A stretch of DNA of 64,000 bases from a virus. This document shows, one piece after another, positions 18,167-62,994 of this stretch; positions within the stretch are counted from its first letter, which is position 1, and each line of letters opens with the position of its first letter. The notes below the pieces were generated by a model. It did no database searches and was not told the DNA's origin. It saw nothing but the letters and a program-made list of their open reading frames with translations. The stretch is from positions 1,970 to 65,969 of the IMG/VR virus record IMGVR_UViG_2695420938_000010, one strand, 5' to 3'. A program made the translations under genes and the position numbers.

Positions 18167-18179
18167 GAATGAATCCTCG

Positions 18180-43903: not shown

Positions 43904-43999
43904 TCGTGGAAGCAATTTATTGCTCGCACCAATTACACCACGACCTTGCAGCGCTCTTATCGTGCGGCAGGTCACAATTCGAGATAGGCGGACAGGGAG

Positions 44000-46717: not shown

Positions 46718-47166
46718 GCCACCCAAATTCCATGGTCCAGTGGTGGGATACGACGCCGATCCAAGCATTACATGAGAAGGGACGTGACTTGCAGTTCGAA
46801 TTGTTGTGGAGCTTCAAGACCAAGGATTTCGAGGTTGTTTGTGAAGCGTACGAGCCTGGCTTCATCGATCCATGGGCACACGACAAGGTAGTGATCGACG
46901 CTGTCGATCGCGGCGATGCCATGCTCACACATTTAAGCGCACGAGTGTATCGACGCGGCGTCAAGGTCGGTGAGGCACGTCTGCCGGACTGCATTCATGT
47001 GAGCGAAGCACCGCCAGAAGATTCGGTACTACAGCGTGCATTTGAAAGCGTGATTGTTGTCGATCACAGTTATCGGCGAAAAGTGGCTAGATGGGCGATC
47101 AGCGACGCAAGGAAAAACCTCGGAGAACTCGATCTTCCCGGGTTATATCTCCGGAAGAAGGACTGA
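46714..47166 (+). CDS. Hypothetical protein (150 aa) coupled to the helicase
   Basis: ATGA start/stop overlap with the helicase; no motif recognised. Confidence 0.7.
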   Translation: MSHPNSMVQWWDTTPIQALHEKGRDLQFELLWSFKTKDFEVVCEAYEPGFIDPWAHDKVVIDAVDRGDAMLTHLSARVYRRGVKVGEARLPDCIHVSEAPPEDSVLQRAFESVIVVDHSYRRKVARWAISDARKNLGELDLPGLYLRKKD

Positions 47167-47334: not shown

Positions 47335-47381
47335 TGGTTGCGGGGGTAGGATTTGAACCTACGACCTTCAGGTTATGAGCC
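47335..47381 (-). tRNA. 3' fragment (47 nt) of initiator-type tRNA-Met(CAT): att-site duplication, not an intact gene
   Basis: Minus strand GGCTCATAACCTGAAGGTCGTAGGTTCAAATCCTACCCCCGCAACCA contains the anticodon loop, T-arm and CCA. The D-arm and 5' acceptor strand are absent. Confidence 0.9.
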
Positions 47382-47518
47382 AGATTTCCAACAATATCTA
47401 GACCCTTGATTGTTGACGTATTTTCCGGCGTAGTCTCCTAGAGCACTGTTTTTTCGAAGCTATCCGGCGCGACCGCCTGTTACTCGCCGCCAGCGAACGA
47501 CAAAAACAGCCACAAGAT

Positions 47519-47538
47519 GTGTTGACACAGTGTTGACA
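47519..47538 (+). repeat. Direct repeat GTGTTGACA x2 (plus TGTTGAC at 47411): putative integrase arm-type sites / -35 box
   Basis: Seen between the att core and the integrase start; role inferred. Confidence 0.5.
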
Positions 47539-47553
47539 TGAGGGAGCGCCGAG

Positions 47554-48846
47554 ATGCCGGAGAAACTGACCGAAGCCGCCGCCCGAAAGGCCCTGCCGCC
47601 CGTGCGCGGGCAGACCATGCTTTGGGACTCGGAGGTGAAGGGGTTCGCGCTGCGGATAACGAAGGGTGGGGCCAAGTCCTTCATCCTGGACTACCGCGCG
47701 GAGGGGCGGCAGCGCCGGATCACCATCGGCGCTTGGCCGGACTGGACGGTGGCCGCCGCGCGCCAGACCGCGAAGGACATGAAACGCGAGGTCGATCTCG
47801 GTCGCGATCCGATGGGCGAGCGACAGGCGCAGCGCGAGGCACCGACGGTGCAGGAGATGTGGGAACGCTACGCTAGCGAGCATCTGCCCAAGAAGGCCGA
47901 GCGCAGTCAGGCCGACGAGCGCATGATGTGGGAAAAGATCATCCTGCCGCGCTTTGGCAAGATGAAGGTCGCGCAGATCACCCATGAGGATGTGGACGCG
48001 CTCCACCGTGACATCACCGAGATCCGAGGAACGCCGGTGCGCGCGAACCGCACCATCGAGGTGCTGCGCAAGGCGTTCAACCTCGCGATCCGCTGGAAGT
48101 GGCGCGACGACAATCCGGCCTCCGGCGTGCGCCGCAATCCAGAAGAAAAGCGGAACCGCTATCTGAACCGCACCGAGATCGCCGCGCTGGCGCAGGCGCT
48201 GAACGAGCATTCCGAGCCCATGTCCGCGAACGCGATCAAACTGCTTATGCTGACCGGCGCGCGGCGCGGCGAGGTGCTGGGCGCGACATGGGAGATGTTC
48301 GACCTCGAGAACGGCGTCTGGACCAAGCCCTCGGCGCATACCAAGCAGCGCAAGCTGCATCGCGTGCCGCTCTCGCGTCCGGCCTTGCAACTGCTGGTCG
48401 AGATGAAGGCCGCCGCCAAGGCGAAGGCCGAAGCCGAGGGCACGCCGCCCAGCCCCTACGTCTTCCCCGGCCCGACCGGCAAGCCGCTCACCGAGATCAA
48501 GCGCACATGGGTCTCGGTCTGCCGCAGGGCGGGGCTCGGCGCGGAGGTGCCGGTGCTGGATGCGAAGGGCAAGCCGGTCCTCGACCGGAACGGCAACCCG
48601 AAAACAAGATTCAAGCCGGATGTGCGGATCCACGACATCCGCCATTCCTTCGCCAGCATCCTCGTGTCGGCGGGCGCGTCGCTGCCCTTGATCGGCCAGA
48701 TGCTAGGCCATACGCAGGTCCAGACCACCCAGCGATACGCCCATCTGTTCGACGATCCGCTGCGCAAGGCTGCCGAGACGGTGGGCGCCTTCGTGTTGCA
48801 GCGGTCGCCAGAGGAGTTCAACGCGAAAGAGGCAGAGCAGAAATGA
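47554..48846 (+). CDS. int: Tyrosine integrase with arm-binding N-terminal domain (P4-like)
   Basis: LWDSEVKGFALR...ITIGAWP arm domain; LTGARRGE (R), HDIRH (HxxR), LGH, TQRY (Y); about 170 bp from the att core. Confidence 0.95.
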   Translation: MPEKLTEAAARKALPPVRGQTMLWDSEVKGFALRITKGGAKSFILDYRAEGRQRRITIGAWPDWTVAAARQTAKDMKREVDLGRDPMGERQAQREAPTVQEMWERYASEHLPKKAERSQADERMMWEKIILPRFGKMKVAQITHEDVDALHRDITEIRGTPVRANRTIEVLRKAFNLAIRWKWRDDNPASGVRRNPEEKRNRYLNRTEIAALAQALNEHSEPMSANAIKLLMLTGARRGEVLGATWEMFDLENGVWTKPSAHTKQRKLHRVPLSRPALQLLVEMKAAAKAKAEAEGTPPSPYVFPGPTGKPLTEIKRTWVSVCRRAGLGAEVPVLDAKGKPVLDRNGNPKTRFKPDVRIHDIRHSFASILVSAGASLPLIGQMLGHTQVQTTQRYAHLFDDPLRKAAETVGAFVLQRSPEEFNAKEAEQK

Positions 48847-49520
48847 CCGATCAGAAGCCCTATGGGCCCCCGCCCGAAGCAATCCCGCTGTCCGAAGCCA
48901 TGAAGGAATTCCTGCCCGCCGAAATGTGGGAGGAGCACGCCCGCGCGACGGAGGCGCGCAACAACGCGCCGAAGCGGCCGAGCTACCTCAGCATGTCGGT
49001 GCGGGAGTGGGAGGCCGTTCAGGCCTCTCGCCAAGCCGCCAACCGGACGCGATCCGCGCGGGCCGATCTGCACCGCGTCTGGAACCGCATGCTCGCGACG
49101 ATGAAGGCGAAGCTGGAGGCAGGGGAACTCACCGCCTTCGGCCAGGAGAACCCGCCCTTCGGCCCATGGCATGCGATCCCGGCGCCCGCGTGGCGGCAAC
49201 TGCGCATCACCAATGTCCGCAAGGGGCAGGCCAGCGTCGGCGCCAACATCGTGCACGACATCCATATCCTGCCGCCCGATGCCGACGACCACATGCCGAC
49301 CGGAACACCCGGGCGTCCGAAGAAGGGAATCGACATCATCCGGATCGAGTTTCAGCGGCGCGTAGATGCGGGCGAGATCGCCGAAAGTCTCGCAGCCGAA
49401 GCTCGCGCGCTGCAGGCGTGGTATCGCGAGACCTATCCGCGGCGGGATTGTCCCACGCCCAAGACCATCGAGAACAACCTTCGCGGGACGTGGCGCGCAG
49501 TTCGTCAAAGGACTGCGTGA
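48843..49520 (+). CDS. Hypothetical protein, possible C-terminal HTH regulator
   Basis: ATGA overlap with int; GRPKKG linker then helical ...CPTPKTIENNLR. Confidence 0.72.
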   Translation: MTDQKPYGPPPEAIPLSEAMKEFLPAEMWEEHARATEARNNAPKRPSYLSMSVREWEAVQASRQAANRTRSARADLHRVWNRMLATMKAKLEAGELTAFGQENPPFGPWHAIPAPAWRQLRITNVRKGQASVGANIVHDIHILPPDADDHMPTGTPGRPKKGIDIIRIEFQRRVDAGEIAESLAAEARALQAWYRETYPRRDCPTPKTIENNLRGTWRAVRQRTA

Positions 49521-49635
49521 TCCCCTGAAATTTTCGTCTCGGGGCCATTTTCGGGGCGGTTTTTCGGGGGCCTGAACGTCGGCATCTCTCGGGCATCGGC
49601 GGCGCGTTGCGTCGCCTGGCACGAAGGAGACGCCG

Positions 49636-49917
49636 ATGACCCGACCCCTTGCATCCGGAGGCGCCGAGAACGCCGCCTCCGTCGCCCCGCCCACCGATTT
49701 CCTCGACGGCTTCATCTCGGAGGAGGAATACGCCGCCCGACGCGGGGTCAGCCTGCGCACCTGCCAGCGCGACCGCCAGCTGCGCCAGTCCCCGCCCTAT
49801 GTCGTGATCGGCCGGCGCGTCTACTACCGCATCGAGGCCGTCCGAGAGTGGCTCCTCGCCCGCGAACAGGCCGCAGACCGCAAGCCGAGCGCCCCGCGCG
49901 CCGGGAGGGGCCGATGA
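49636..49917 (+). CDS. AlpA-like HTH / excisionase
   Basis: ISEEEYAARRGVSLRTCQRDR...PPYVVIGRRVYYRIEAVREWL; RBS aaggag. Confidence 0.85.
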   Translation: MTRPLASGGAENAASVAPPTDFLDGFISEEEYAARRGVSLRTCQRDRQLRQSPPYVVIGRRVYYRIEAVREWLLAREQAADRKPSAPRAGRGR

Positions 49918-50138
49918 CCGCGCCCACCACGCTTGCGGCCGACCTGATGGTGGGCGCCGCCGAGATCGCCCGCTTCATCTACGACTCCGACGAATTCCGG
50001 TTTCAGCGTCGCGTCTACTACCTCTGCACCCGCGCCAAGCGACCGCTGCCGCATTTCCGGCTGGGCCACCGCATCGCCACGCGCCGCTCCACGCTGATGG
50101 ACTGGATCGCCCTGCAGGAGGGCAACGCCCATGCCTGA
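49914..50138 (+). CDS. Second small DNA-binding (AlpA/Xis-like) protein
   Basis: DLMVGAAEIARFI...RRVYYL...LPHFRLG..IATRRSTLMDWI; ATGA overlap. Confidence 0.75.
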   Translation: MTAPTTLAADLMVGAAEIARFIYDSDEFRFQRRVYYLCTRAKRPLPHFRLGHRIATRRSTLMDWIALQEGNAHA

Positions 50139-50598
50139 CACGCCCATCCAGTTCACCGGCTCGATCCTCGAGCAGCTGGAAGCCAAGGTCGCCGCGGAGG
50201 CCGAACATCTGCTGCCCATCGTCCACGCGATCCGCGATCACGGTGTCGGCTTCCTGGTGATCCCCCAGCGCGCGACCGGGCTCCATCGCGGCATCAAGCT
50301 GCTGCAGCGGCCGTTCATCGTCATGGTGGGCGATGACACCGACTGCGCTCTTGGCCCCGATCAGTATGACGGAAAGGCGCTCGACCGGCTGATTGGCATG
50401 GCTGACGGCGTCGCCATCATTTCCTGCGCCCCGCCGCCCGAGGCCTATTCGAGCATCGCGATGATGGCGATGGCGCAGCGCAACGGGCTGATCATCGAGA
50501 CCCGGCCCGAGCAGGAGATCGCCTGGACCAATCGCGTGCAGGCGGTCTGCCCGGAAATGCCGATCCTTCTCTGCACCGTGAAAGGGCCACAGCAATGA
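50131..50598 (+). CDS. Hypothetical protein (155 aa)
   Basis: Overlaps both neighbours; normal composition; no motif recognised. Confidence 0.75.
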   Translation: MPDTPIQFTGSILEQLEAKVAAEAEHLLPIVHAIRDHGVGFLVIPQRATGLHRGIKLLQRPFIVMVGDDTDCALGPDQYDGKALDRLIGMADGVAIISCAPPPEAYSSIAMMAMAQRNGLIIETRPEQEIAWTNRVQAVCPEMPILLCTVKGPQQ

Positions 50599-53048
50599 CG
50601 GCGCAGGGCGATCCTCTCGACTTCAACGGCACGCAGCCCGGCTCGCGCGCACCGACCAACACGCGCATGTCCGTCGCCCAACTGGCCGACATGCTGAACG
50701 ACCGTATCGCGGATCTCGCGCGCGAGTTGCTGGGCGAGCCGAACCGGGAACTTTCCAGCGCGCAGACCCTGCGCTTCGGCGCCAAGGGCAGCGTCGCCGT
50801 GGAAATCGACGGCGCGAACAGGGGCCGCTGGTATGACCACGAGCACGGCGCCGGGGGCGCGGGGCTAGAGCTGATCGGCTATCGGCTGCGCCTGGACGAC
50901 AAGGCGGCGTGGGACTGGGCGCGGTGCTGGCTGGGCGAAGCCCACGCCGGTCCATCCTGGACGACGACACCGACCCCCGCGCCCGCCCGTTCCGCCTCGG
51001 GCGCGGCAAGGGCCAAGGCACCGACGCCTGAGGAACGCGCCGCGAAGGTAGCCGAAATCGTGCGCGGCGCCGAGCCGATTGTCTCGACGCCAGCGGAAGC
51101 CTACCTGCGCCATAGGGGCATCACCGCAACGCCGCCCGACTGCATCCGCTATCGCCGGAACGCCTACGGCCAGTTCGGCGCGATGGTCGCGCTCGCCACC
51201 GATGAGGCGGGCGAGGTGCTGGCGATCCAGCAGGTCTATCTGACGGCCGAGGGGCGAAAGGCCCCGCTCAGGGTGGTCAAGCGCACCAACAAGGCCGTGG
51301 ATGGCTGGGCGGAACGATCCGCCGTTCGGCTGCCGGGGCGCGAGCCGCTGATCCTCTGCGAGGGGGTCGAAACCGCGCTTTCGGCCTGGCAGGCGACGGG
51401 ACAGGAAACCTGGGCCTGCCTCGGCATCTCGAACATCGGCCGCGCGCCTGTGCCCGCGAACGCAGCGGTCATCATCGCCCGCGACGGCGACTTGCCCGGC
51501 AGCAAGGCCGAAGGCCAGATCGTGCGCGCCGCCAGCAACCTCGTGCATCGTGGCGCGACTGTGCTGATCGCCACCCCGCCCGAAGAACAGGACTTCAACG
51601 ATGTGCTGGTCCAGGAAGGCGAAGAGGCCGTGCGCGAGCGCATCGTGGCCGCCGAACGCTTCCGCCCGGAGGAGGCCGACATCGAACGCAAGCGCCTCTC
51701 CATCGGCTCGGATGTGGAGATCGCACGGCGCGTGCGGGAGGACCTGACCGAGCGTTTCGGGCGCATAGTTCATACCGAGGGCGCGTTCTGGCGCTACGGT
51801 GGCAGCCATTGGGAGGCGATCCCCGACCACGAACTGCGCCTGCCTGTCCACGCCTATGACGGCGCGGGGTTCCAGACGCCTGCCGGCGAGCCCTCGAACG
51901 TCAAGCTGACCAAGGGTCGTGTCGACTCGATCCTGAACGAATGTGCCGCGCTCTGCGCCGAGCCGGGATATTTCGACACGCCGCCCTCCGGCATCAACTG
52001 CGCCTCGGGTTTCATCCGCTTCGATGCGGAGGGGACGCCGCGCCTTGAGCCGCATCACCGTGAGCATCGCTGCCGCCACACGCTGCCGGGCCATTGGCAG
52101 CCGGGCGCTTGCGGCGCACCCCCGGTGGGCTCGCTGCTGGCCAGGCTGCTCACCGGCAGCTTCAAGGACGACCCGGACGCCGAGGCGAAATGCGCGCTGC
52201 TCGCGGAGGTCTGCGGCGCGGCGGCGCTGGGCTACGCCACCCGGCTGATGCAGCCGCGCGCGGTGGTTCTGCATGGCAAGACTGCCGAGAATGGCAAGAG
52301 CCAGGTGCTTGAACTCGCCCGCGGTCTCCTGCCCGAAAGCGCGATCTGCTCGGTCCCCGCCTCGAAGATGGGCGACGAGCGGCATGTCATCGGGCTGGTG
52401 GGCAAGCTGCTCAACGCCTCGGACGAGCTGTCACCCGAAGCCATCGCATCCGACACCTTCAAGGCGGTCGTCACCGGCGATCCCATCGAGGGGCGCGACG
52501 TCTACAAGAGCCGGGTCGAGTTCCGCTCCATGGCACAGAACCTGTTCGCCGCGAACCAGCTGCCCAGCTTCAAGGGCGGGGTGGACCGGGGCGTGCAGCG
52601 GCGTCTGCTGCTGATCACCTTCACGCGCTCGATCCCGCTCGAGGAGCGCATCGAGGATATCGGCAAGCGCATCGCGGCCGAGGAGGCAGACCTCCTGCTG
52701 GCGTGGGCGGTGGAGGGCGCATCGCGTTTGATCCGCCAACGCAATTTCGCCATTCCCGAATGCTGCAACAGGGAACTGCTGGAATGGGTGCTCAGCGAGG
52801 ATCCCGTCGCCGCGTGGATCGACGCCTGCGTGAACGTCGTTCCAATCGTCAATGGCGGGCCGCTCGTCACCACCCGCGATGCGCACCTGCACTTCCATAA
52901 CTGGGCGCTTGGGGAAGGCTACAAGCCCGAGAAGCTGCCCGCCATCAACGGCTTCGTGCAGCGCGTCCAGGCCCGCGTGGCCGGCATCCAGTACAAGCGT
53001 ACGAGCAAGGCGCGGTTCTTCGTCGGCCTCACGATGACGCACCGATGA
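50595..53048 (+). CDS. P4/D5-type primase-helicase (TOPRIM + D5_N + SF3 helicase)
   Basis: ILCEGVETALS and IIARDGD (TOPRIM); GINCASG (D5_N); LHGKTAENGKSQ Walker A; LNASDE Walker B; LFAANQLP motif C. Confidence 0.9.
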   Translation: MTAQGDPLDFNGTQPGSRAPTNTRMSVAQLADMLNDRIADLARELLGEPNRELSSAQTLRFGAKGSVAVEIDGANRGRWYDHEHGAGGAGLELIGYRLRLDDKAAWDWARCWLGEAHAGPSWTTTPTPAPARSASGAARAKAPTPEERAAKVAEIVRGAEPIVSTPAEAYLRHRGITATPPDCIRYRRNAYGQFGAMVALATDEAGEVLAIQQVYLTAEGRKAPLRVVKRTNKAVDGWAERSAVRLPGREPLILCEGVETALSAWQATGQETWACLGISNIGRAPVPANAAVIIARDGDLPGSKAEGQIVRAASNLVHRGATVLIATPPEEQDFNDVLVQEGEEAVRERIVAAERFRPEEADIERKRLSIGSDVEIARRVREDLTERFGRIVHTEGAFWRYGGSHWEAIPDHELRLPVHAYDGAGFQTPAGEPSNVKLTKGRVDSILNECAALCAEPGYFDTPPSGINCASGFIRFDAEGTPRLEPHHREHRCRHTLPGHWQPGACGAPPVGSLLARLLTGSFKDDPDAEAKCALLAEVCGAAALGYATRLMQPRAVVLHGKTAENGKSQVLELARGLLPESAICSVPASKMGDERHVIGLVGKLLNASDELSPEAIASDTFKAVVTGDPIEGRDVYKSRVEFRSMAQNLFAANQLPSFKGGVDRGVQRRLLLITFTRSIPLEERIEDIGKRIAAEEADLLLAWAVEGASRLIRQRNFAIPECCNRELLEWVLSEDPVAAWIDACVNVVPIVNGGPLVTTRDAHLHFHNWALGEGYKPEKLPAINGFVQRVQARVAGIQYKRTSKARFFVGLTMTHR

Positions 53049-53258
53049 CGCACCAAAGCGGCTTTTTGACCCCTAACCCATTGAGAGTGTTGAGATGACG
53101 CACTTGGCTTCAACCTTTTTGATAAGGGGGAAATCCCTCTCCCCAATCATCATCCCGTTCCCCCCTATAGAAAAGGATGGCGGGGGAGGTGCGTCATCTC
53201 AACACTTTCAAGGACTTGCGCGCGAAACCCCGTCATTCCTGCGTCACCGTCGCGTCAC
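53033..53258. repeat. GATGACGCAC iteron array, convergent: putative origin of element 2
   Basis: Direct copies at 53033, 53044 and 53094; inverted copy at 53189 (perfect 18-bp IR 53086-53103 / 53189-53206); further GCGTCAC copies near 53241 and 53252. Confidence 0.75.
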
Positions 53259-53315
53259 TCAGAGGGCCGAGCCCGCCCTCCCGAGGTGCGGTCAAGCCGG
53301 AAGGATCGGGAAATC

Positions 53316-53380
53316 CGCGGTTCCTCCTGCGCCGAATGTCATGCGGGGACGCGCAGCGCATTGCGTCGCCAGCGTCAGGG
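53316..53380 (+). other. Putative cos / packaging signal of element 2
   Basis: CGCGGTTCCT...ATGCG-N11-CGCAT...TCGCCAGCGTCAGGG immediately before terS; matches 26277-26342. Confidence 0.6.
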
Positions 53381-53387
53381 GGCAGAA

Positions 53388-53897
53388 ATGACTAAACTCG
53401 ACAGACATGAGACCAAGACCGCCTTCGCCGCCCGCGTCGGGCTGACCAAAGGGCGCATCTCGCAGCTGGTGGCCGAGGGGCTGCCGGTGCGCTCGGACGG
53501 ACGCATCGACGTGGCCGAGGGGCTCGCCTGGATCGAGACGAACCTCGATCCGGGCCGGCGCTACAAGGGCGGTGCGCCCACGGCGACGACCCGCACCGCC
53601 ACGCTGGCCGAGGCCAAGCGGCTGCACGAGATCGTCAAGGTCCAGCGCGCCCGGCTGGCCTTCGAGCGCGAGCAGGGCAAGCTGATCGACGCCGACGAGG
53701 CGCGGCGGACGGTATTCGCGCGCGCCCGTGCCGAACGCGACGCGCATCTGGCGTGGGTGCAACGGACGGCACCCCTGCTGGCAGCCGAACTCGGCGCCGA
53801 CCCCCGCGCCACCTTCGCCGCGCTCGACCGGATGATGCGGGAGCATCTCGAACACCTGGCCGACCTTCCGCTGGGGAGCTTTGGCGATGGTGCCTGA
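53388..53897 (+). CDS. terS: Terminase small subunit (Nu1-like)
   Basis: ETKTAFAARVGLTKGRISQLVAEGLP..DGRID HTH; coiled coil; the RAERDA..W segment parallels the terS of prophage 1. Confidence 0.82.
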   Translation: MTKLDRHETKTAFAARVGLTKGRISQLVAEGLPVRSDGRIDVAEGLAWIETNLDPGRRYKGGAPTATTRTATLAEAKRLHEIVKVQRARLAFEREQGKLIDADEARRTVFARARAERDAHLAWVQRTAPLLAAELGADPRATFAALDRMMREHLEHLADLPLGSFGDGA

Positions 53898-55698
53898 CAT
53901 CGACCTCGCCTGGCGGCGCGGCATCCGCCCCGAACCGCCGGTCCCTGTCTCGGACTGGGCCGACCGGCACCGCATCCTGCCTCCGACCTCGGCCGAGCCT
54001 GGCCGCTGGCGCACGGACCGCACGCCCTATCTGCGCGAGGTGATGGACGCACTCTCGACCGCCAGCCCCTACGAGCGCGTCGTGCTGATGAAGGGCGCGC
54101 AGACCGGCGGTTCGGAGGCCGGACTGAACTGGCTCGGCTACATCATCCAGAACGCGCCCGGCATCGCCATGCTGGTCATGCCGTCGCTCGACATGGTGCG
54201 CCGGAACACCACCGTCCGCATCGACCCGCTGATCGAGGCCACGCCCGCGCTGCGTGATCTGGTCGCCTCGCCCCGCTCCCGCGACGCCGGGAACAGCCTG
54301 TTCCGCAAGTCCTTCCCCGGCGGCCAGCTGGTGATGACCGGCGCCAACTCGGCCGTCGGCCTGCGCTCGACACCGGTGCGTTATCTCTTTCTCGATGAGG
54401 TGGACGGCTATCCCGGCGACGCCGACGGCGAGGGCGATCCCGTCGATCTAGCCATCCAGCGCACCGCGACCTTCCGCGGGCGGCGCAAGATCTACATGGT
54501 CTCCACGCCCACGCTGAAGGGCCACTCCCGCATCGAGGCGGCCTTCGAGCAGAGCGACCGGCGCTTGTACCACGTCCCCTGCCTGCATTGCGGCGACATG
54601 GCCCCGATCACCTGGGCGCGCATCCGCTGGCCCGAGGGGCGGCGCGACCAGGCGCATCTGGTCTGCGAGGCCTGCGGTGGCATCCATCACGAGCACGAGA
54701 AGCCCCGCCTGCTGGCTGCGGGTGAATGGCGCGCGACCGCCGAGGGCGACGGCCGCACTACAGGCTTCCACCTCTCCGCGCTCTATTCCCCGTGGGAGAC
54801 CTGGGCCGAGATCGCCGCCGAACACGGCCGCGTTCGCAAGGATCCCGCCCGCCTTCAGGTCTGGGTCAACACCAAGCTGGGCGAGTCTTGGGAGGACCAG
54901 GCGGGCGACACCGTTCCGGCCGACCCGCTGATGGCCCGCCGCGAGGACTGGGGCGAGGCTCTGCCCGCCTCCGTCGCCGTGCTGACTGCCGGCGTCGATG
55001 TGCAGGGCGACCGGATCGAGGTGCAGATCCTCGGCTGGGGCCGCGACGAGGAGGCTTGGGTGATCGACTACCGCGTGCTCTGGGGCGACCCGTCAGGCCC
55101 GCGCCTCTGGGCCGACCTCGACATGGTGCTGCAGGCGACGTTCCCGCATCCCGCGGGGCTCGACCTGCCGGTGCGCGCCGCCGCCATCGACACCGGCGGC
55201 CACCACACCAAGATGGCCTACGAGTTCTGCCGCACCCGCCTCGCGCGCCGCATCTGGGCGATCAAGGGCCGCGGCGGACCCGGGATCCCCGTCTGGCCGC
55301 GCCGCCCGACGCGCACGAACAAGGGCAAGATCCCGCTCTTTATCGTCGGCGTGGACGCGGTGAAGGACTCCGTCTACGCCCGCCTGCGCCTCACCGAGCC
55401 CGGCCCCGGCGCGATCCACTTCCCCCGTCGCCTCGACGCCGACTATTTCCGCCAGCTGACCGCCGAGCGCGTCGTCACCCGCTTCGAGCGCGGCCGCCCT
55501 ATCCGCTCCTGGCAACCCAAGCGCGACGGCGAGCGCAACGAGGCCCTCGACACCTTCGTCTACGCCCACGCCGCCCTGCACGGGCTCATCAGCATGGGCC
55601 TCAGGCTGAACGAGGAGGTGGAAGGGGTTGCGGTCACGCCGACGCCGACGGATGCGGCGGCTGCGGGGGTGATCCGGTCGGCGTGGCTACGGCGCTGA
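53881..55698 (+). CDS. terL: Terminase large subunit, lambda gpA family
   Basis: VVLMKGAQTGGSE, RYLFLDEVDGYP, VSTPT, YHVPCLHCG, RNEALDTFVYA. Confidence 0.95.
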   Translation: MAMVPDIDLAWRRGIRPEPPVPVSDWADRHRILPPTSAEPGRWRTDRTPYLREVMDALSTASPYERVVLMKGAQTGGSEAGLNWLGYIIQNAPGIAMLVMPSLDMVRRNTTVRIDPLIEATPALRDLVASPRSRDAGNSLFRKSFPGGQLVMTGANSAVGLRSTPVRYLFLDEVDGYPGDADGEGDPVDLAIQRTATFRGRRKIYMVSTPTLKGHSRIEAAFEQSDRRLYHVPCLHCGDMAPITWARIRWPEGRRDQAHLVCEACGGIHHEHEKPRLLAAGEWRATAEGDGRTTGFHLSALYSPWETWAEIAAEHGRVRKDPARLQVWVNTKLGESWEDQAGDTVPADPLMARREDWGEALPASVAVLTAGVDVQGDRIEVQILGWGRDEEAWVIDYRVLWGDPSGPRLWADLDMVLQATFPHPAGLDLPVRAAAIDTGGHHTKMAYEFCRTRLARRIWAIKGRGGPGIPVWPRRPTRTNKGKIPLFIVGVDAVKDSVYARLRLTEPGPGAIHFPRRLDADYFRQLTAERVVTRFERGRPIRSWQPKRDGERNEALDTFVYAHAALHGLISMGLRLNEEVEGVAVTPTPTDAAAAGVIRSAWLRR

Positions 55699-55734
55699 CC
55701 CACCTCTGCGTTAGCCAGCGAACTCCACCACCAA

Positions 55735-56982
55735 CTATCGCTTCGAGCCGAACCACCTGTAGTGGTAATTCACGCAAACATCGTCGAGCGAATGGGTCAG
55801 GGTGATTTTTTGCCCATTCAACGGATCACCCATCGCCTTTGATCGGATTACGTAGTCTCCCCCAACCTTTTTAATTCTCAGGATTCCACGGTCAAATTGC
55901 AGATGATGATTGGGGCACAGAACTAGCATATTACTTGCCTTATCGGGGCCACTATGCGGCTCACCCAGGCCCTTGATATGGGCGGCCTCCGAGTAATACC
56001 GATCCTCAGAAATTTGAAGTTTAGTTCCACAAAATTGGCATGTATTGTCATAATGCTGCTTTAGAGCCGCGGCCTTTTTTCGATTTCGCTTCTGCTCCTG
56101 CCGTTCGACGGTCCGCCGCTCGACGACCTCATCTGACTCCTCTTGCTCTAGCCACTCGAGGCCTTCCTCCTCCGGGATCTCAGGTGCTGGCTTCGGCGGC
56201 GGCGGGGTTGTCGGCGTAAGAGCAGTCTTTGCCTCACGGAAGCGTTCGATGCCGCCGACGGAGCCGTAGAGATCTGCCAGGTCACCCGCCTGAGCCAAGG
56301 CAAACCCTCGGGTTACCCCCAAGAGCTTGTAAAGCTCGTCCGAGTCTATGAGGTCAACGAGGCTCGCTCTGTCAGAAGGTCCACCGTCAAGGATGTGTCG
56401 ATCCCAGGCCAGAAACAGTGCAGAGGCTATCCACTGCTCGGCCTGAGCGTTAATCACTGGCAGTGACGTCGGCCAAAACTCGCATAATTCATAGAGATGG
56501 CGGTAGTTGTTGCGGCACTTCACTCGCACGTCCAACTGGGCGTCCATCCGGTCCGTGATGAAGGGGTCGAGAGAGGCGTCGGATAGCGCGGAGGAGCGCC
56601 AAACGCCAGACTGCCACAATCGCTCCCGGACGAACTCATTGGCCCACATGGCCGGACGACTCACAACCCTCTGACCGGTTCCTACCCGGTTGAGGTGCAG
56701 CGCAAAGAGGGCAAGTCTATCGAACCGAATTGAGTGGGGTCGCTCGATCGCTTGGAAGACCAACTCGTCGACTGACATGCGGCCCGCTTTGTTGTGCAGA
56801 AAAAAGTTGACCGGAATGAGGCTTAGTGAGGCGTCCAGCCCAGAGTCTTCACGAAACCGGTCGCGCGGAACAGTGGCCAGCGTGTCCTGAAACCCGGCAC
56901 GTATGACGATGTGAAGCTTGCGCAGCCCGGTTCCATGCCACGCAAAGTTCTTCGAGAAGCTGCCCGGAGCGTGCTTCACCAT
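55735..56982 (-). CDS. HNH endonuclease with a ~290-aa uncharacterised N-terminal region
   Basis: C-terminal CQFCG...EAAHIK...DKASNMLVLCPNHHLQFDRG, the HNH_2 / McrA-type Zn-HNH pattern. Confidence 0.88.
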   Translation of the reverse strand: MVKHAPGSFSKNFAWHGTGLRKLHIVIRAGFQDTLATVPRDRFREDSGLDASLSLIPVNFFLHNKAGRMSVDELVFQAIERPHSIRFDRLALFALHLNRVGTGQRVVSRPAMWANEFVRERLWQSGVWRSSALSDASLDPFITDRMDAQLDVRVKCRNNYRHLYELCEFWPTSLPVINAQAEQWIASALFLAWDRHILDGGPSDRASLVDLIDSDELYKLLGVTRGFALAQAGDLADLYGSVGGIERFREAKTALTPTTPPPPKPAPEIPEEEGLEWLEQEESDEVVERRTVERQEQKRNRKKAAALKQHYDNTCQFCGTKLQISEDRYYSEAAHIKGLGEPHSGPDKASNMLVLCPNHHLQFDRGILRIKKVGGDYVIRSKAMGDPLNGQKITLTHSLDDVCVNYHYRWFGSKR

Positions 56983-57033
56983 CTATATCTTGCCTCAGAG
57001 ATGCTTAACCTTTAGCACATATAGAAACGGAAA

Positions 57034-57684
57034 ATGAGCAGGGGCACAATGGTCAATCCTTCCCAAGAACTTCTCGCAACAGCGAACGGGCGCAAATTCC
57101 AGACCATCCTGGCTGACCCGCCGTGGCGGTTCACAAACCGGACTGGCAAGATGGCACCGGAGCATCGACGGCTGTCGAGGTACGGGACCATGAGTCTGCC
57201 AGAGATCAAGGCTCTGCCCGTTGCTGAGATAGTTCAGGAACCGGCTCACCTCTATCTCTGGGTGCCGAATGCGCTGCTTCCAGAAGGCATCGAAGTACTC
57301 CGCGCATGGGGCTTCGAATACAAGTCGAACATTGTCTGGCACAAGATTCGAAAGGACGGCGGATCAGATGGCCGAGGAGTGGGCTTCTACTTTCGAAATG
57401 TCACGGAGCTTGTGCTGTTTGGGGTGCGGGGAAAAAACGCGCGAACACTAGCCCCCGGACGGAGGCAGGTGAATCTCATTGCGTCCCAGAAGCGCGAGCA
57501 TAGCCGGAAGCCGGATGAACTCTACGACGTGATCGAGGCATGCAGTCGAGGACCTTTTCTTGAGATGTTCGCACGTGACACTCGAAAAGGTTGGACGGGC
57601 TGGGGCAATCAAGCCGAGAATTACGAGATCACTTGGGACACGTACGCACACCATAGCCGTGTGACTGCAAGTGCGGCTGAGTGA
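57034..57684 (+). CDS. MT-A70 family N6-adenine methyltransferase
   Basis: TILADPPW, HLYLWVPN, WGFEYKS, HSRKP, LEMFAR. Confidence 0.92.
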   Translation: MSRGTMVNPSQELLATANGRKFQTILADPPWRFTNRTGKMAPEHRRLSRYGTMSLPEIKALPVAEIVQEPAHLYLWVPNALLPEGIEVLRAWGFEYKSNIVWHKIRKDGGSDGRGVGFYFRNVTELVLFGVRGKNARTLAPGRRQVNLIASQKREHSRKPDELYDVIEACSRGPFLEMFARDTRKGWTGWGNQAENYEITWDTYAHHSRVTASAAE

Positions 57685-57753
57685 ACTTGCCGATAGGCGC
57701 CCTCGAAGGCGTCGCTTCAATTGGCCATCCGACATCGCGATGATCGAACAGGG

Positions 57754-57780
57754 GCAGCGACCCGACGTCCGGGTCGCTGC
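57754..57780. terminator. Hairpin between the convergent MT-A70 and AIPR genes
   Basis: gcagcgacccg-acgtc-cgggtcgctgc, a perfect 11-bp stem followed by a T-rich run. Confidence 0.7.
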
Positions 57781-57793
57781 GTAGCGGTTTTTC

Positions 57794-58990
57794 TTACGCT
57801 GACTGAGACTTCATGACCGAAGCAATGGTGTCGGTGTAGATGCTGAGCGCATCGTATGCAGCTTCGCTACGGCCCATGTAGGCGACCTGCCGGTCCAAGG
57901 CACGATACTGCTTCACTGCACGGTCGATCATCTGGTCAGCATCGAAAAGGCTGGGCTTCTCAATGGTCCACTTCCCGTCCTTCTGTACGACGAAAGCCGA
58001 CAGCGCAGACATGATCGGGAAGAGCAGACCAGGCGCGACCCAGATGATCTTGCCGTCAGGGCCACGCCGAACGGGGCGCCCACCCTTGGGTGCGCCGCCG
58101 TTGGGGCTCTTGCTCTTCTCGTGCAGATGATGACCGTTCCAGGCGGGATGCGTCTCCCAGTTGCGGTACTCCTTGATCGCCGCCACAGCGATCTGAACTG
58201 TGAAGTCATACCGCTTCTTCGCTTCGGGATCAGTCTTGCGCGACTGCGCCCATTCCCCGAATTCCTTCAAGCACTTACCCGCCTGCTTGTAGGGCATGTT
58301 GTGAGCTTTCGTGCCCGACGCCTCGAGCTCTGCCGGCATCAGTGTCCGGCACCACTGCAGAACCGCCTGCGCGGACAGTCCCTCTGTGTCGGTCTCGTTC
58401 ATCTGAAGAGTCTCACCTGGCAACCCGGCTTCGATTGCCGCGCGGAGATCGTCAAGATAACCGCGCGCACCGGCCTGAGAAACGCTCTTCACCGACGTGG
58501 CCGTGTTGCGGGCGATAGCAACTTCCACGATCTGCTCGTGCTGAGGCTCCATGATGATCTCGGCGCGGACCGGGAAGTCGGTGTTATCGTCGTCTTCGAG
58601 ACTGGCGAAATACCGCTTCAGTTCACCTTGGGTCTGCGCGCCATTGATGATGCTGGCGTTCGTCAGATGCGCCATCCGCTTCGAGTCGTCGATCTTGCAG
58701 TCGGTGCAGGTGATCGTCACACCGGAATTCCGGTTGATGAACCGATCCGGCTGCTCAAGGATCGTAGCCTCAATTTCCTTGTGGACGGCGTTGCGTTTCG
58801 AGTCCTTGTGCTCGGCGATGTAGGTCCGCAGGTTGTCCTGCGTACCAAGCTTGGTCACCTCGCGGGCGCTGACGTTCGCGAACCAAGTCTGAACGCCATT
58901 GGCCTTTTCCTCGGGGGAGGTCAGGTTCTTGATCGAATTGTAATGGAGGGTAAAAGTCGTCGACCCCGCCGACGGGTTGTCGTAAGCCAT
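57794..58990 (-). CDS. AIPR-family protein (abortive infection phage resistance)
   Basis: DNLRTYI, FINRNSGVTI, SIINGAQT, AIARNT. Confidence 0.85.
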   Translation of the reverse strand: MAYDNPSAGSTTFTLHYNSIKNLTSPEEKANGVQTWFANVSAREVTKLGTQDNLRTYIAEHKDSKRNAVHKEIEATILEQPDRFINRNSGVTITCTDCKIDDSKRMAHLTNASIINGAQTQGELKRYFASLEDDDNTDFPVRAEIIMEPQHEQIVEVAIARNTATSVKSVSQAGARGYLDDLRAAIEAGLPGETLQMNETDTEGLSAQAVLQWCRTLMPAELEASGTKAHNMPYKQAGKCLKEFGEWAQSRKTDPEAKKRYDFTVQIAVAAIKEYRNWETHPAWNGHHLHEKSKSPNGGAPKGGRPVRRGPDGKIIWVAPGLLFPIMSALSAFVVQKDGKWTIEKPSLFDADQMIDRAVKQYRALDRQVAYMGRSEAAYDALSIYTDTIASVMKSQSA

Positions 58991-59222
58991 GTTGGCTCTC
59001 CTTCAGTTTCATATGCCCCGCGGATCCCGTCGATGCACGACTGCGCATGACGCTCACGAAAGCAAGGGAAAGATAGGCTGAACCATTTCGCTGCACAAGC
59101 CCCACAAGCAACTTTCGTTCACCGCACACTATCTGCGAGGCTAGGCGTTCGCGAGAGAAGCCGCATTGATTCCCAAACATTCCCAATAGCTTGAGGGAGC
59201 GTTTCGGGCGATTCTGCCGCCC

Positions 59223-60635
59223 ATGCGGACCTTCCTCCATCGCCTTCTCGGCCTCGCGCGCGCTCGCGGCTTCGACGCTGCGGGTGGCGGGCGACGTTGG
59301 GAGGGGGCGCGGACGGTTGACGGGCTGAACGCGGCGATCCTGGCAGGCGCGACCACGGCGGCGCGGCGGGCCGGGTGGTATGCGCGGAACAACCCGTGGG
59401 TCGCGGCGGCGGTGGACAGCCTCGTCGGCAATGTCGTCGGCGCCGGGATCAAGCCGCAGTCCACCCATTCCGACCGGGCGGTGCGCGAGCGGCTGCAGGC
59501 GCTCTGGCTGCGCTGGACCGATCACGCCGCCCCGGACGGTCTGGCGGATTTCTACGGGCTGCAGGCCATGGCGGTGCGCGCGATGGTCGAGAGCGGCGAG
59601 AGCTTCGCCCGGCTGCGCGTGGCGAGCGACGCCGCCACCATTCCCCTCCACCTCGAGCTTCTGGATCGCGACCAGGTTCCCATGGACCTGCACCGCGAGA
59701 TCGGCGGCGGGGCGCGGATCAGGGCGGGCATCGAGTTCGATGCCGCCGGTCGCCGGGTCGCCTATCGGGTATTGTCCTCCCGCCCGGGCGACCCTCTCGG
59801 GGCTCTCCACACAGACCCGCTCCGCGTCCCCGCCGCCGATTGTCTGCACCTTTTCAAGCCCCTCGCCGCGGGCCAGTTGCGCGGGATCACCTGGCTCGCG
59901 CCGGTCCTGCTGCGGCTGCACGAGCTCGACCAGTTCGAGGACGCCGCGCTGGTGAAGGCCAAGGTCGCGGCGCTGTTCACCGGCTTCATCACCGATCCCG
60001 ACGGCACCGCGGGCGGGCTCTCGGGCACCAACACCGGCGGCGCGCTGACCGTGGGCATGGAGCCGGGCAGCCTGATCCCGCTGCCGCCCGGCACGGACAT
60101 CCGCTTTTCCAACCCGACCGAGCATGACGCCTACGCGCCCTTCGTGAAGAACCACCTGCGCGCCATCGCCTCCGGGCTGGGCCTGCCCTACGAGCTGGTA
60201 TCGGGTGACCTGGAGGGCGTCACCTATTCCTCGATCCGCGCCGGGCTGATCGAGTTCAGGCGCCGCGTCGAGCAGCTTCAGCACAACGTGGTCGTCCACC
60301 AGTTCTGCCGCCCGGTCTGGGAGCGGTTCGTGCGGCTGGCGGTGCTGACCGGCGAGCTGCCTGCGCGGGACTTCGACCGGAACCCGGACGCCTATCTCGG
60401 CTGCGAATGGCTGCCGCCGAAGTTCGACTACGTCGATCCGATGAAGGACGTGCAGGCCGAGATCATGGCGATCGGCGCGGGGCTCAAGAGCCGGTCCCAG
60501 GCGATCTCCGAGCGCGGCTATGACGCCGAGCAGGTGGATGCCGAGATCGCCGCGGACCGCGAGCGCGCGGAGGGGCTGGGGCTTGCCTTCGGTCAGACGG
60601 CGTCGCCACAGCAGAAGGAGGCCGCCGATGGCTGA
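59223..60635 (+). CDS. Portal protein, lambda family
   Basis: ARNNPW, DFYGLQA, GQLRGITW, ELVSGDLEGVTYSSIRAGLIEFRR, PKFDYVDPMKD. Confidence 0.93.
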   Translation: MRTFLHRLLGLARARGFDAAGGGRRWEGARTVDGLNAAILAGATTAARRAGWYARNNPWVAAAVDSLVGNVVGAGIKPQSTHSDRAVRERLQALWLRWTDHAAPDGLADFYGLQAMAVRAMVESGESFARLRVASDAATIPLHLELLDRDQVPMDLHREIGGGARIRAGIEFDAAGRRVAYRVLSSRPGDPLGALHTDPLRVPAADCLHLFKPLAAGQLRGITWLAPVLLRLHELDQFEDAALVKAKVAALFTGFITDPDGTAGGLSGTNTGGALTVGMEPGSLIPLPPGTDIRFSNPTEHDAYAPFVKNHLRAIASGLGLPYELVSGDLEGVTYSSIRAGLIEFRRRVEQLQHNVVVHQFCRPVWERFVRLAVLTGELPARDFDRNPDAYLGCEWLPPKFDYVDPMKDVQAEIMAIGAGLKSRSQAISERGYDAEQVDAEIAADRERAEGLGLAFGQTASPQQKEAADG

Positions 60636-62439
60636 CACGATGGAACTGCTCACCCGCCGCGCCACGCTGGCGCCCGCCACGGCCGATCCCGAGGCCCGCA
60701 CCGTCGAGGTGGTCTGGTCCACCGGCGCGCCCGTGCGCCGCCGCGACATGGCGGGTCCATACATCGAGCGGCTCAGCCTTGCACCCGATGCCGTGGACCT
60801 CTCACGCCTGGAAGGCGCCAGCGTGCTGGACGCACATCGCCAGACCGCCGTCCGCGACGTGCTGGGTTCCGTTCGTAGCGCCGCCGTGGACGGCAAGCGC
60901 GGCACGGCGCTCATCCAGTTCTCGGCCCGGCCCGAGGTGGAGCCGGTCTGGCAGGACGTGCTGGCGGGCATCCTGCGGCACGTCTCGGTCGGCTACTCGG
61001 TCGAGACGTGGACCGAGACCACCGAGAACGGCGCGCGCGTGCTGACGGCCGTGCGCTGGACGCCCCACGAGATTTCTCTAGTGCCGACGCCCGCCGACCC
61101 CGGCGCCCACATTCGCATGGAGACAGAGATGACCGACAAGACCACCCGAGAGGCTGCCGACACGGCGCCGATCACCGAGTCCCGCGCCGAGGCGAATGCC
61201 GAAATCCGCTCCATTGCCCGCATCGCCGGGCTGGACCAGTCGTGGATCGACGGCCAGATCGACGGCGGCGCCGATCCCGACACCGCCCGCCGCGCCGCCT
61301 TCGAGGCGCTGGCGAAGCGGTCCGCGCCCGCGATCCGCACAGAGCAGGTCCGCGTCGAGATGGGCGAGAGCCAGGACGATCCCGCCCTGCGCGCCCGGCA
61401 GATGGGCGAAGCCCTCTACGCCCGGATCAACCCGCGCCATGAGCTTTCCGAGCCTGCCCGGCGTTACGCCTATGCGACCCCGGTGGACATGGCGAAGGAA
61501 CTGCTGACGCTCCGCGGCGAGACCACCATGGCGCTGTCGCCCGCGAGCCTCGTGACCCGCGCGCTGCACACCACCTCCGATTTCCCGATCATCCTCGGGG
61601 ACACGGTGGGCCGGGTGCTCCGCGACGCCTACCAGGCCGCCCCGTCGGGTATCCGCCGCCTCGGCCGACAGACCACGGCGCGGGACTTCCGGGCGGTGAA
61701 CAAGATCATGCTGGGCGAGGCGCCGCTGCTGGAGAAGCTGAACGAGCACGGCGAGATCAAGGCCGGCACGATGGCCGAGGCGCGCGAGGCATACAAGGTC
61801 GAGACCTGGGCGCGGAAGATCGGCATCACCCGACAGTTACTGGTCAACGACGACCTCGGCGCCTTCGCGGATCTCGCCCGCCGCATGGGCCAGGCCGCGG
61901 CAGAGACCGAAGCGCGCATCCTCGTGACCCTCCTGGAAGCGGGGAGCGGCAACGGCCCGACCATGTCGGACGGCAAGACCCTGTTCCACGCCGATCACGG
62001 CAACAAGGCGGGCACCGGCGCGGCGATCTCCGACGCGACGCTGTCGGCCGCCCGGTTGGCGCTCCGCACCCAGAAGGGCATCGAGGACCGCACGATCCGC
62101 GTGACGCCGAAAAACCTGCTGGTGCCTCCCGCGCTCGAGACCACCGCCGAGAAATGGCTGGCGAGCATCGCACCCGCGACGGCGGCCGATGTGAACCCGT
62201 TCTCGGGTTCGCTGTCGCTGGTGGTGGAGCCGCGCCTGTCCTCAGCCACCCGCTGGTATGTCACCGCAGACCCCGGCGAGATCGACGGGCTGGAGTTCGC
62301 TTATCTCTCCGGCGCGGAGGGCCCGCAGGTGGAAAGCCGCTCGGGCTGGGACGTGGACGGGGTCGAGATCCGGGTGATCCTCGATTTCGGAGCCGGGTTC
62401 ATCGACCATCGGGGCTGGTTCATGAACGCAGGCGCGTGA
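60628..62439 (+). CDS. Prohead protease-major capsid fusion (603 aa)
   Basis: RTVEVVWSTGA, VLDAH, VSVGYSV, WTPHEISLVPTPAD; TTSDFP, ITRQLLVNDDL, DFGAGFIDHRG; RBS aaggag. Confidence 0.92.
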   Translation: MADTMELLTRRATLAPATADPEARTVEVVWSTGAPVRRRDMAGPYIERLSLAPDAVDLSRLEGASVLDAHRQTAVRDVLGSVRSAAVDGKRGTALIQFSARPEVEPVWQDVLAGILRHVSVGYSVETWTETTENGARVLTAVRWTPHEISLVPTPADPGAHIRMETEMTDKTTREAADTAPITESRAEANAEIRSIARIAGLDQSWIDGQIDGGADPDTARRAAFEALAKRSAPAIRTEQVRVEMGESQDDPALRARQMGEALYARINPRHELSEPARRYAYATPVDMAKELLTLRGETTMALSPASLVTRALHTTSDFPIILGDTVGRVLRDAYQAAPSGIRRLGRQTTARDFRAVNKIMLGEAPLLEKLNEHGEIKAGTMAEAREAYKVETWARKIGITRQLLVNDDLGAFADLARRMGQAAAETEARILVTLLEAGSGNGPTMSDGKTLFHADHGNKAGTGAAISDATLSAARLALRTQKGIEDRTIRVTPKNLLVPPALETTAEKWLASIAPATAADVNPFSGSLSLVVEPRLSSATRWYVTADPGEIDGLEFAYLSGAEGPQVESRSGWDVDGVEIRVILDFGAGFIDHRGWFMNAGA

Positions 62440-62648
62440 TGGCCGACCTCGCCCAGCTCACCGCCTGGCGCGACGCCCTGATGGCCGCGCGCTACCAGGG
62501 CGTCCGCACCGTCGAATACGACGGCAAGCGCATCACCTACGCAAGCGACGGCGAAATGGCCGCCGCGCTCGCGGATCTCAACCGGCAGATCGCCGGGGCG
62601 ACCGAGCGCATCTCGGTCGTCCGCATCCAATCCTCGAAAGGGCTCTGA
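62439..62648 (+). CDS. gpW-like head-completion protein
   Basis: ARYQGVRTVEYDGKRITY, similar to SGTTRVSYDGKTVDY at 19691-19894; TGATG coupling. Confidence 0.8.
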   Translation: MADLAQLTAWRDALMAARYQGVRTVEYDGKRITYASDGEMAAALADLNRQIAGATERISVVRIQSSKGL

Positions 62649-62649
62649 G

Positions 62650-62994
62650 ATGAAGAACTACCTCCAGAACGGCCACATCGTCCGCGTCACGACGCCAGCG
62701 GGCGGTATCGCCTCGGGCGACGCGCTGATCGTCGGCAGCATCTTCGGCGTCGCCGCCTGGTCCGCGGCCGAGGGCGACCCGGTCGAGCTCGCCACCACCG
62801 GAGTGTTCCAGCTGCCGAAAGCCAGCGCCGCAGTGCTGACCGTTGGCGCGCGTGTGGCGTGGGACAACACGGCCAAGGAGGTGGCCACTCCGGCGGCCGG
62901 ACGCTTCCCCATCGGCGTGGCTGTCGAGGCGGCTGGGAACGGCATCACCAGCGTCGCCGTACGGCTGGATGGGATCGCGACGGCGGCTGCATAA
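62650..62994 (+). CDS. DUF2190 capsid decoration protein
   Basis: MKNYLQNG...IASGDALIVGSIFGVA...TGVFQLPK...VAWDN...IGVAVEAA; paralog of 15691-16026. Confidence 0.88.
   Translation: MKNYLQNGHIVRVTTPAGGIASGDALIVGSIFGVAAWSAAEGDPVELATTGVFQLPKASAAVLTVGARVAWDNTAKEVATPAAGRFPIGVAVEAAGNGITSVAVRLDGIATAAA

Follow-up and report, generated by a model that had tools for sequence, protein, structure and literature searches.

The locus considered here raises the question of what kind of mobile element carries a full set of phage packaging and head genes together with no tail. It lies in a 64,000-nucleotide stretch of DNA, hereafter the window (IMG/VR virus record IMGVR_UViG_2695420938_000010, positions 1,970 to 65,969), which corresponds to positions 17074-81073 of contig C19 in a high-GC genome of 3.86 Mb from a large alphaproteobacterial family, assembled in 86 contigs. 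A preliminary description of the window had interpreted the region 47335-62994 as a tail-less, capsid-forming satellite. The boundaries of the element and the conservation of its tail-less gene order, both reported below, support this interpretation. We estimate a probability of a little over three in four that the element is an intact capsid-forming phage satellite, which works like the phage-inducible chromosomal islands that form capsids of their own (cf-PICIs) and has a separate, lambda-like ancestry.

Boundaries and gene content of the element

The preliminary description had placed an attachment site (att) core at 47335 and proposed extending the contig to the other end. Contig C19 continues for 821 bp beyond the window, and ARAGORN, with Rfam in agreement, located a tRNA-Met(CAT) gene on the minus strand about 700 bp past the window (C19:81772-81848; window-equivalent 64699-64775, L001:17773-17849), 46 bp before the contig ends. 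Read by eye, this tRNA starts with CGCGGGG, ends with GCAACCA and has a C1-A72 mismatch, and is therefore an initiator tRNA-fMet. The intact gene represents attR. At 47335-47381, on the minus strand, we found a displaced copy of its 3' 47 nt (attL), as expected from the proposed core. The 47 nt common to both ends differ by two mismatches, which are compensatory changes in the T-stem, and are embedded in a wider direct repeat of 101 nt with 78% identity. A 19-nt arm-type repeat, TGTTGACACAGTGTTGACA, lies on the plus strand at 47520-47538, immediately upstream of the integrase gene, and its second copy is immediately inside attR (L001:17688-17706); since the integrase has an Arm-DNA-bind_3 domain, the pair probably serves as its arm-binding sites. 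With both att ends located, the element is complete, at 17.4 kb. The integration site is the 3' end of a tRNA-fMet gene, the last gene of an rRNA operon, and the copy carried by the element restores this end.

The packaging and head genes, all on the plus strand, were found as previously listed. They comprise terS for the small terminase subunit (53286-53897; phrog_57, 6e-31), terL for a large terminase subunit of the lambda gpA type (53881-55698; GpA_ATPase and GpA_nuclease, 1e-93 and 1e-99), a portal gene of the lambda family (59223-60635; Phage_portal_2, 3e-103), a 603-residue fusion of prohead protease, scaffold-like segment and major capsid protein (60628-62439; phrog_4523, 9e-233), a gpW-like head-tail adaptor of 65 residues, Ad1 (62451-62648; phrog_2545, 2e-20), and a head decoration or cement protein with a profile match to DUF2190, now Phage_cement_2 (62650-62994). 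Ad1 is the final conserved structural gene across the family, and the decoration gene is absent from about 16 relatives. The operon ends at 62994 against a convergent gene that begins at 63006. Searches of the open reading frames (ORFs) with Pfam and PHROG profiles detected no tail, neck, head-tail attachment or lysis genes within the att boundaries. The reported lack of stopper, neck, tail-tube, tape-measure and lysis genes thus holds up to attR; tail genes further right, which the preliminary description had considered as a possible objection, do not appear, and only one gene, a non-structural one, lies between the decoration gene and attR.

The window also contains a full siphovirus-type prophage, prophage 1. 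Its genes run in the order terS, gpA-type terL, gpW, portal, protease-capsid fusion, decoration protein, a 103-residue head-tail attachment protein (46% identical to gp11 of Rhodobacter phage RcKemmy), DUF6441, terminator, Phage_tube_2 tube, chaperone, tape measure, endolysin and distal tail proteins like those of gene transfer agents (GTAs). Prophage 1, RcKemmy and its relatives are lambda-type-head siphophages of Rhodobacterales, and their terS, gpA-type terL, gpW, portal, protease-capsid fusion and DUF2190 genes are homologous to those of the element. In these phages, however, gpW is placed between terL and the portal gene, and after the decoration gene come those for the head-tail attachment protein, DUF6441, terminator, tube, tape measure and distal tail. 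The head proteins of the element and prophage 1 are 35-49% identical, with 35% for terS, and its terminase is 35-47% identical to those of the resident phages. The element is thus not a simple duplication of prophage 1, as had been noted before.

The left arm begins with a P4-type tyrosine integrase with an arm-binding domain (47554-48846, plus strand; Phage_integrase 1e-24, Arm-DNA-bind_3 3e-18). The preliminary description had reported an integrase and two AlpA-like proteins; the integrase was confirmed, and the AlpA identity of the small ORFs was weakly supported. The first (49636-49917, plus strand) is an AlpA/Xis-like small DNA-binding protein in tentative assignment, and the second (49914-50138, plus strand) resembles it in ribosome-binding site and start context and in a C-terminal motif, and is conserved in relatives. 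These genes are predicted to provide integration and, probably, excision functions. A conserved backbone ORF of 155 residues follows (50131-50598, plus strand; 86-97% identical in relatives), for which Pfam, PHROG and further profile searches gave no family match and the ESM Atlas gave no lead. Next is a P4-alpha-type primase-helicase (50595-53048, plus strand) with DUF7146, Toprim_3, D5_N and DUF5906 domains. It adjoins a region of iterons and inverted repeats with an AT-rich core (53031-53260), whose repeats are conserved in relatives. The iteron GATGACGCAC occurs in four exact copies within 53033-53198 and has no other exact copy in the window, and repeats with a TGACGCA core are kept at the same position in relatives. 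These domains and repeats bear out the P4/D5 primase with adjoining iterons reported earlier. The 230-bp region is probably the replication origin and may also hold cos.

Tail-less relatives and the capsid tree

A simple explanation for such a gene content would be decay, in which deletions removed the tail and lysis genes of a lambda-like temperate phage and left it inert. Consistent with this, the head module is homologous, at the identities given above, to those of tailed prophages in the same genome, foreign low-GC DNA interrupts the head operon, and decayed copies do exist, including a remnant on contig C12 and the split genes of locus L067. The left arm argues against it, being of the P4/PICI type (integrase, AlpA, primase) and not a phage replication and immunity region. 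Further evidence comes from relatives.

In a capsid-based scan, species-representative genomes yielded 142 relatives and IMG/VR yielded 198. The search for the same tail-less synteny that the preliminary description had proposed found it in more than 150 loci of Rhodobacterales, Hyphomicrobiales and Rhodospirillales, with protein identities of 72-97%. The adaptor could be positioned in 153 loci, and in every one of them its gene followed that of the capsid. A minus-strand tRNA-Met was present 134-2822 bp downstream of the last head gene in 57 of the 153, the contig ended within 3 kb in 73, and no tRNA-Met was nearby in 23. We examined 19 loci without a nearby tRNA-Met; several were tandem islands with another integrase, and no tail PHROGs were found in the flanks of any. 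Homologues of the prophage 1 tail proteins were likewise absent from the relatives' flanks. Homologous elements that normally carry full tails, which would have pointed to a deleted prophage, were therefore not what we found. In dozens of genera, elements stop at the same tail-less point directly beside the tRNA, with intact reading frames and 85-97% protein identity, which requires that the tail-less form was selected and recently transferred.

The carriers include isolates of Rhodobacterales, of Hyphomicrobiales (Pannonibacter, Pararhizobium, Rhabdaerophilum) and of Rhodospirillales (Zavarzinia, Magnetospirillum). Across several genera and orders, identity to the element is about 90% at the nucleotide level and 93-97% at the protein level, which points to recent horizontal spread. 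Conservation extends to the left arm and att core, and one IMG/VR contig of 17.1 kb covers a complete element. In a relative from Paracoccus rhizosphaerae, the target tRNA directly follows the 16S-Ile-Ala-23S-5S genes, so that the target of the family is the tRNA-fMet at the end of rRNA operons. Because the att target ends rRNA operons, assemblies break at these islands.

Some individual loci depart from this pattern. L067, from a record labelled Oceanobacillus sp., a Firmicute, has a split terS and truncated terL and capsid matches, and is probably contamination or a decaying copy. We considered L041 as a circular or permuted form, since its decoration gene is followed by an integrase gene with 82% identity, and rejected it because the primase downstream differs, indicating a tandem array. 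In the IMG/VR contig L198, a satellite-type integrase/AlpA module (integrase 80% identical) with the att core lies beside an inverted phage-type head module, in which gpW is between terL and the portal gene; satellites and phages of the helper type seem to have this integration module in common.

We then compared capsids in 400 genera sampled from the host's family. Capsids of the clade at tRNA-fMet (fMet clade; at least 87% identity) were present in 16 of the 400 genera (about 4%), often in several copies per genome. Capsids of about 600 residues with 38-53% identity belonged to further tail-less islands of the same gene order, which adjoin tRNA-Cys, Gln/tmRNA, Glu, Arg, Tyr, Trp, Phe or Ser genes, and capsids of 700-760 residues belonged to full prophages with tails 83-95% identical to those of prophage 1. 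The closest capsid of an isolated phage was 38% identical to that of the element. In a maximum-likelihood capsid tree, which is unrooted and has limited phage sampling, ten tailed phages and three unclassified phage-like loci fell on one side of a branch with 97% support in the Shimodaira-Hasegawa-like approximate likelihood ratio test. All tail-less elements fell on the other side, in three deep clades, namely the fMet clade and two further ones at other tRNAs. This capsid tree, part of one of the checks proposed beforehand, shows the tail-less lineages as deep and unmixed with phages, which speaks against a decayed prophage. Taken together, these results largely refute decay, which we regard as very improbable.

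The capsid fusion differs between the two groups in a single segment. When the element (60628-62439) was compared with prophage 1 (16103-18541) and 33 other loci, the linker from protease to scaffold measured 26-53 residues in 25 of 25 satellites and 84-115 residues in 10 of 10 phages, and the other segments were of equal length. With cargo added to a backbone of about 12.4 kb, the elements measure 12.5-22 kb and reach no more than half the size of a genome of some 40 kb; the related phage RcKemmy, for example, has 41.3 kb. These comparisons suggest that the short linker may relate to a smaller capsid.

Candidate helpers and the source of tails

If the element is a satellite that forms its own heads, a helper would have to provide the tails. 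Every phage-type locus encodes a head-tail attachment protein after the decoration gene, and no homologue of it is present in the fMet-clade satellites; the satellite head would therefore end at the adaptor ring and need the helper's protein and tail. We also observed a 36% identical homologue of this phage protein upstream of terL in a tail-less island of clade B (L089:16768-17052), and some satellite clades may thus carry a neck protein elsewhere in the element.

The preliminary description had proposed the neighbouring GTA-tailed prophage, prophage 1, as the tail donor. About four neck/tail modules of this kind are present in the genome (on C19, C5, C40 and C27). In the survey, the prophage-1-type tube gene was detected in 84 of the 400 genera, and its protein was 90-97% identical in more than 40. 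The gene was present in 11 of the 16 genera with fMet satellites as compared with 73 of the 384 others (odds ratio 9.4, one-sided Fisher p = 3e-5), in a test that ignores phylogeny and prophage load and uses a satellite group defined after the search. Genera with other satellite clades showed no enrichment (4 of 17). All five satellite carriers from other orders had tube homologues, at 84-95% identity in three, and in Magnetospirillum both the satellite and the tube were more divergent. With this identity in more than 40 genera of the family and 84-95% in three Hyphomicrobiales isolates, the prophage 1 tube (12609-13553) is unusually conserved across hosts for a phage tail. We regard the co-occurrence as a lead, not as proof. 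On these data, siphophages of the prophage 1 type, with a lambda-type head, a Phage_tube_2 tube and a GTA-like distal tail, appear to be the most likely helpers. The proposed tail type is therefore supported, by statistics only, whereas prophage 1 itself as the specific helper is not; it is part of a composite island of 64 kb, and tails of this type also belong to three other prophages in the genome.

A different source of tails would be the host's own GTA, with tails and lysis of the RcGTA type completing the heads; alternatively, the particles may need no tail. The genome contains four GTA_TIM distal-tail genes, one of them probably in a true GTA cluster, and the satellite genera that have no prophage-1-type tube gene would fit such a source. 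GTA clusters are also known as near-universal in Rhodobacterales, and a broad host range would be in keeping with this. Against it, RcGTA-type clusters are, to our knowledge, generally not found in Rhodospirillales, where the satellite occurs in genera such as Magnetospirillum and Zavarzinia. Furthermore, the lambda/gpW-type portal and adaptor match the neck of the prophage 1 type (gpW, then the 103-residue attachment protein) and not the RcGTA adaptor set, and the statistical association is specifically with the prophage-1-type tube gene. Particles without tails are difficult to reconcile with a portal and adaptor, which imply an attached tail. We therefore consider GTA-completed or tail-free particles unlikely.

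In the satellite cycle that we propose, a helper phage would be induced or would infect, and the island would excise and replicate from its own origin. It would then build its own, probably small, heads and fill them with unit-length satellite DNA. The gpW-type adaptor ring would accept the helper's 103-residue attachment protein and a pre-assembled siphovirus tail, and the helper would also provide lysis.

Several points weigh against the element being a working satellite of this kind. Excision, replication, packaging and transfer are predictions, and the small capsid is deduced from element size and the shorter linker. The limits of the co-occurrence test given above count here as well, as does the lack of a prophage-1-type tube gene in 5 of the 16 satellite-bearing genera; in Zavarzinia marina the satellite is 93-97% identical and the tube homologue only 39-42%. 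The AlpA assignment of the first small ORF depends on phrog_66 (E = 7e-6) and RdfS (E = 0.18), and a Pfam search of it gave no match. Opposite-strand cargo splits the head operon, so that the genes from portal to decoration protein need their own promoter or read-through; a scan of the element for promoters and terminators performed no better than on shuffled sequence, and identified no promoter for these genes. Finally, a search of sequencing runs for the exact DNA recovered only its own assembly and small shares in metagenomes.

Cargo, setting and relation to known satellites

The split in the head operon is due to a low-GC insert of 3.5 kb between terL and the portal gene (55687-59168), which the preliminary description did not mention. 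It encodes an HNH_2 nuclease (55735-56982, minus strand; profile match, low GC), an MT-A70 type II DNA methyltransferase (57034-57684, plus strand; MT-A70 4e-32, MTase_II 3e-93) and an AIPR/AbiU-like abortive-infection protein (57794-58990, minus strand; AIPR 1e-17, AbiU 4e-12). The HNH_2 protein is probably the restriction partner of the methylase in a type II restriction-modification (R-M) pair. Homology to relatives stops at 55686, restarts at 59168 and stops again at about 62995. The second slot holds the convergent gene (63006-64000 for the 3' part in the window, minus strand). This gene runs on to window-equivalent 64460-64622 (L001:16080-17534/17696) and encodes 484-538 residues with a HicA-like C-terminus in profile searches. 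It is present at the same slot in about 10 relatives; an ESM Atlas search of its protein gave no lead, and single-sequence AlphaFold models of this right-hand cargo protein and of the 155-residue backbone ORF had a predicted local distance difference test score of about 40 each. Among relatives, the gap between terL and portal ranges from 94 bp to 7.6 kb (median 3.5 kb) and is hypervariable, with 124 ORFs in 94 clusters, mostly type I, II, IIG and III R-M genes, including EcoRI, EcoRII, PstI, MamI and MmeI families. The slots between terL and portal and beside attR are thus predicted to carry defence genes, and family-wide mostly R-M systems.

This cargo could mean that the island is mainly a defence island, whose head and terminase genes interfere with infecting phages and whose own particle-mediated transfer is rare or absent. 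Both variable slots hold defence genes, R-M dominates the cargo of the family, and known satellites have been described to interfere with their helper phages. For interference alone, however, an island would not need an integrase, an origin and the full, conserved complement of terS, terL, portal, protease-capsid and adaptor genes. Nor does this explanation account for about 90% nucleotide identity across orders, which indicates frequent horizontal movement, with no conjugation genes present, and satellites that do transfer typically carry defence cargo too. A mainly defensive role therefore seems improbable to us.

A third att copy at C19:217-264 and a second integrase at C19:2042-3262 imply that the whole contig is a tandem array, in the order chromosome, att, 64-kb composite island, att, satellite, tRNA-fMet and rRNA operon. 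The composite island contains metabolic genes, prophage 1 and a low-GC nuclease/ATPase/helicase operon, in addition to DUF6880, glutamine-synthetase/ABC/ornithine-cyclodeaminase genes and an IS21-like transposase. Around the third att copy, 118 bp (C19:147-264, L203) are identical to C38:79-196 (L204), where they span the 3' part of a second tRNA-fMet gene and its downstream flank. We rejected the sequence left of this copy as the end of a further element, because only these 118 bp match the second tRNA-fMet locus; it is therefore the native downstream flank of the rRNA operon. The low-GC operon of four genes (39252-47166), at the right end of the neighbouring island, abuts the satellite's attL and encodes an SbcD-like Metallophos protein (408 residues), an SbcC-like AAA_27 protein (1141 residues), a UvrD-like helicase (905 residues) with weak GajB matches, and a 153-residue ORF. 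It resembles a defence system, and none of the PADLOC models matched. Elsewhere in the genome, the start of contig C12 (C12:382-721, L002) holds the remnant of a second related satellite, of which only a 76% identical adaptor gene and a 70% identical first half of the decoration gene survive; it probably abuts another rRNA operon.

Among known systems, the element is closest in layout to the cf-PICIs, which, in the portions of the literature available to us, are known from Enterobacteriaceae, Pasteurellaceae, Morganellaceae and Firmicutes, have three independent origins, and carry an HNH-terS-terL module and two head-tail genes. Their SatelliteFinder model has 11 core components and forbids tail and holin genes, and their original description gives 50-90% homology of the packaging and head module among EcCIEDL933-type elements. 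Like EcCIEDL933 of E. coli, our element belongs to integrative islands of 12-22 kb with an integrase, an AlpA-like regulator (weakly assigned here) and a primase-replicase on the left; it encodes a terS, terL, portal, protease, capsid and head-tail adaptor of its own (by Pfam and PHROG profiles, not those of SatelliteFinder) and no tail or holin genes inside its two known att boundaries, and near-identical copies occur in different genera. It differs from the cf-PICIs in its gpA-type terL, its lambda-family portal, its fused protease and capsid, its gene order (terS, terL, cargo, portal, capsid, adaptor) and its att site at the tRNA-fMet linked to rRNA operons, and its alphaproteobacterial hosts are not among the cf-PICI taxa named in those portions. 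Whereas capsids and tail theft are known for cf-PICIs, the element is known here from its genes.

No packaging HNH gene lies beside terS and terL, the gpA-type terL including its own nuclease domain (GpA_nuclease); the HNH_2 gene is in the variable cargo slot and absent from relatives. A second head-tail connector is lacking too, as no ORF is left after Ad1 and the decoration gene. The element would therefore be a functional analogue of the cf-PICIs of independent descent. Since the two modules are set apart by their descriptions, common descent of its gpA/lambda module and the HNH-terS-terL module is unlikely, in line with the distinct lambda-gpA ancestry proposed earlier.

Classical Gram-negative PICIs and P4-like satellites share with the element a tyrosine integrase at a tRNA, a small AlpA/Xis-like protein, a P4-alpha-type primase-helicase with an adjoining iteron origin, and defence cargo in hot spots. 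They remodel or use helper capsids and have no terL, portal or major capsid genes, whereas the element has all three, and Pfam and PHROG profile searches of its ORFs gave no match to psu, sid or delta-like genes. Marine virion-encapsidated integrative mobile elements have been described without capsid genes. A complete tailed phage would have tail, neck and lysis genes inside the att boundaries, which the element does not. We found no description of capsid-forming satellites in Alphaproteobacteria in the literature that could be searched, and some members may be counted in the SatelliteFinder survey tables.

The balance of evidence tips slightly towards a broader proposal, namely that the element belongs to a large superfamily of alphaproteobacterial capsid-forming satellites, for which we found no description. 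The superfamily would descend from phages with lambda-type heads, separately from the three cf-PICI origins already known, with at least three deep clades and at least ten tRNA/tmRNA targets. The fMet clade would use the universally conserved initiator tRNA linked to rRNA operons and the very conserved tails of one prophage type to cross genera and orders, shuttling R-M systems in a dedicated slot within its head operon.

If this is true, it would represent a further independent origin of capsid-forming satellites, in a different bacterial class and from a different head and terminase lineage. The system is concrete and abundant, with a named candidate helper type and candidate hosts, among them strains of Paracoccus, Albimonas, Histidinibacterium and Pannonibacter that can be cultivated. 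On the practical side, the islands break assemblies at rRNA operons and are filed as viruses in IMG/VR. Three features would be new to the field. The consistently shortened linker of the protease-capsid fusion is a testable candidate for the control of capsid size, and the hypervariable slot between terL and portal would make these elements major carriers of restriction-modification systems. Their target, the initiator tRNA that ends rRNA operons, is almost invariant and present in multiple copies, which would explain their spread across orders.

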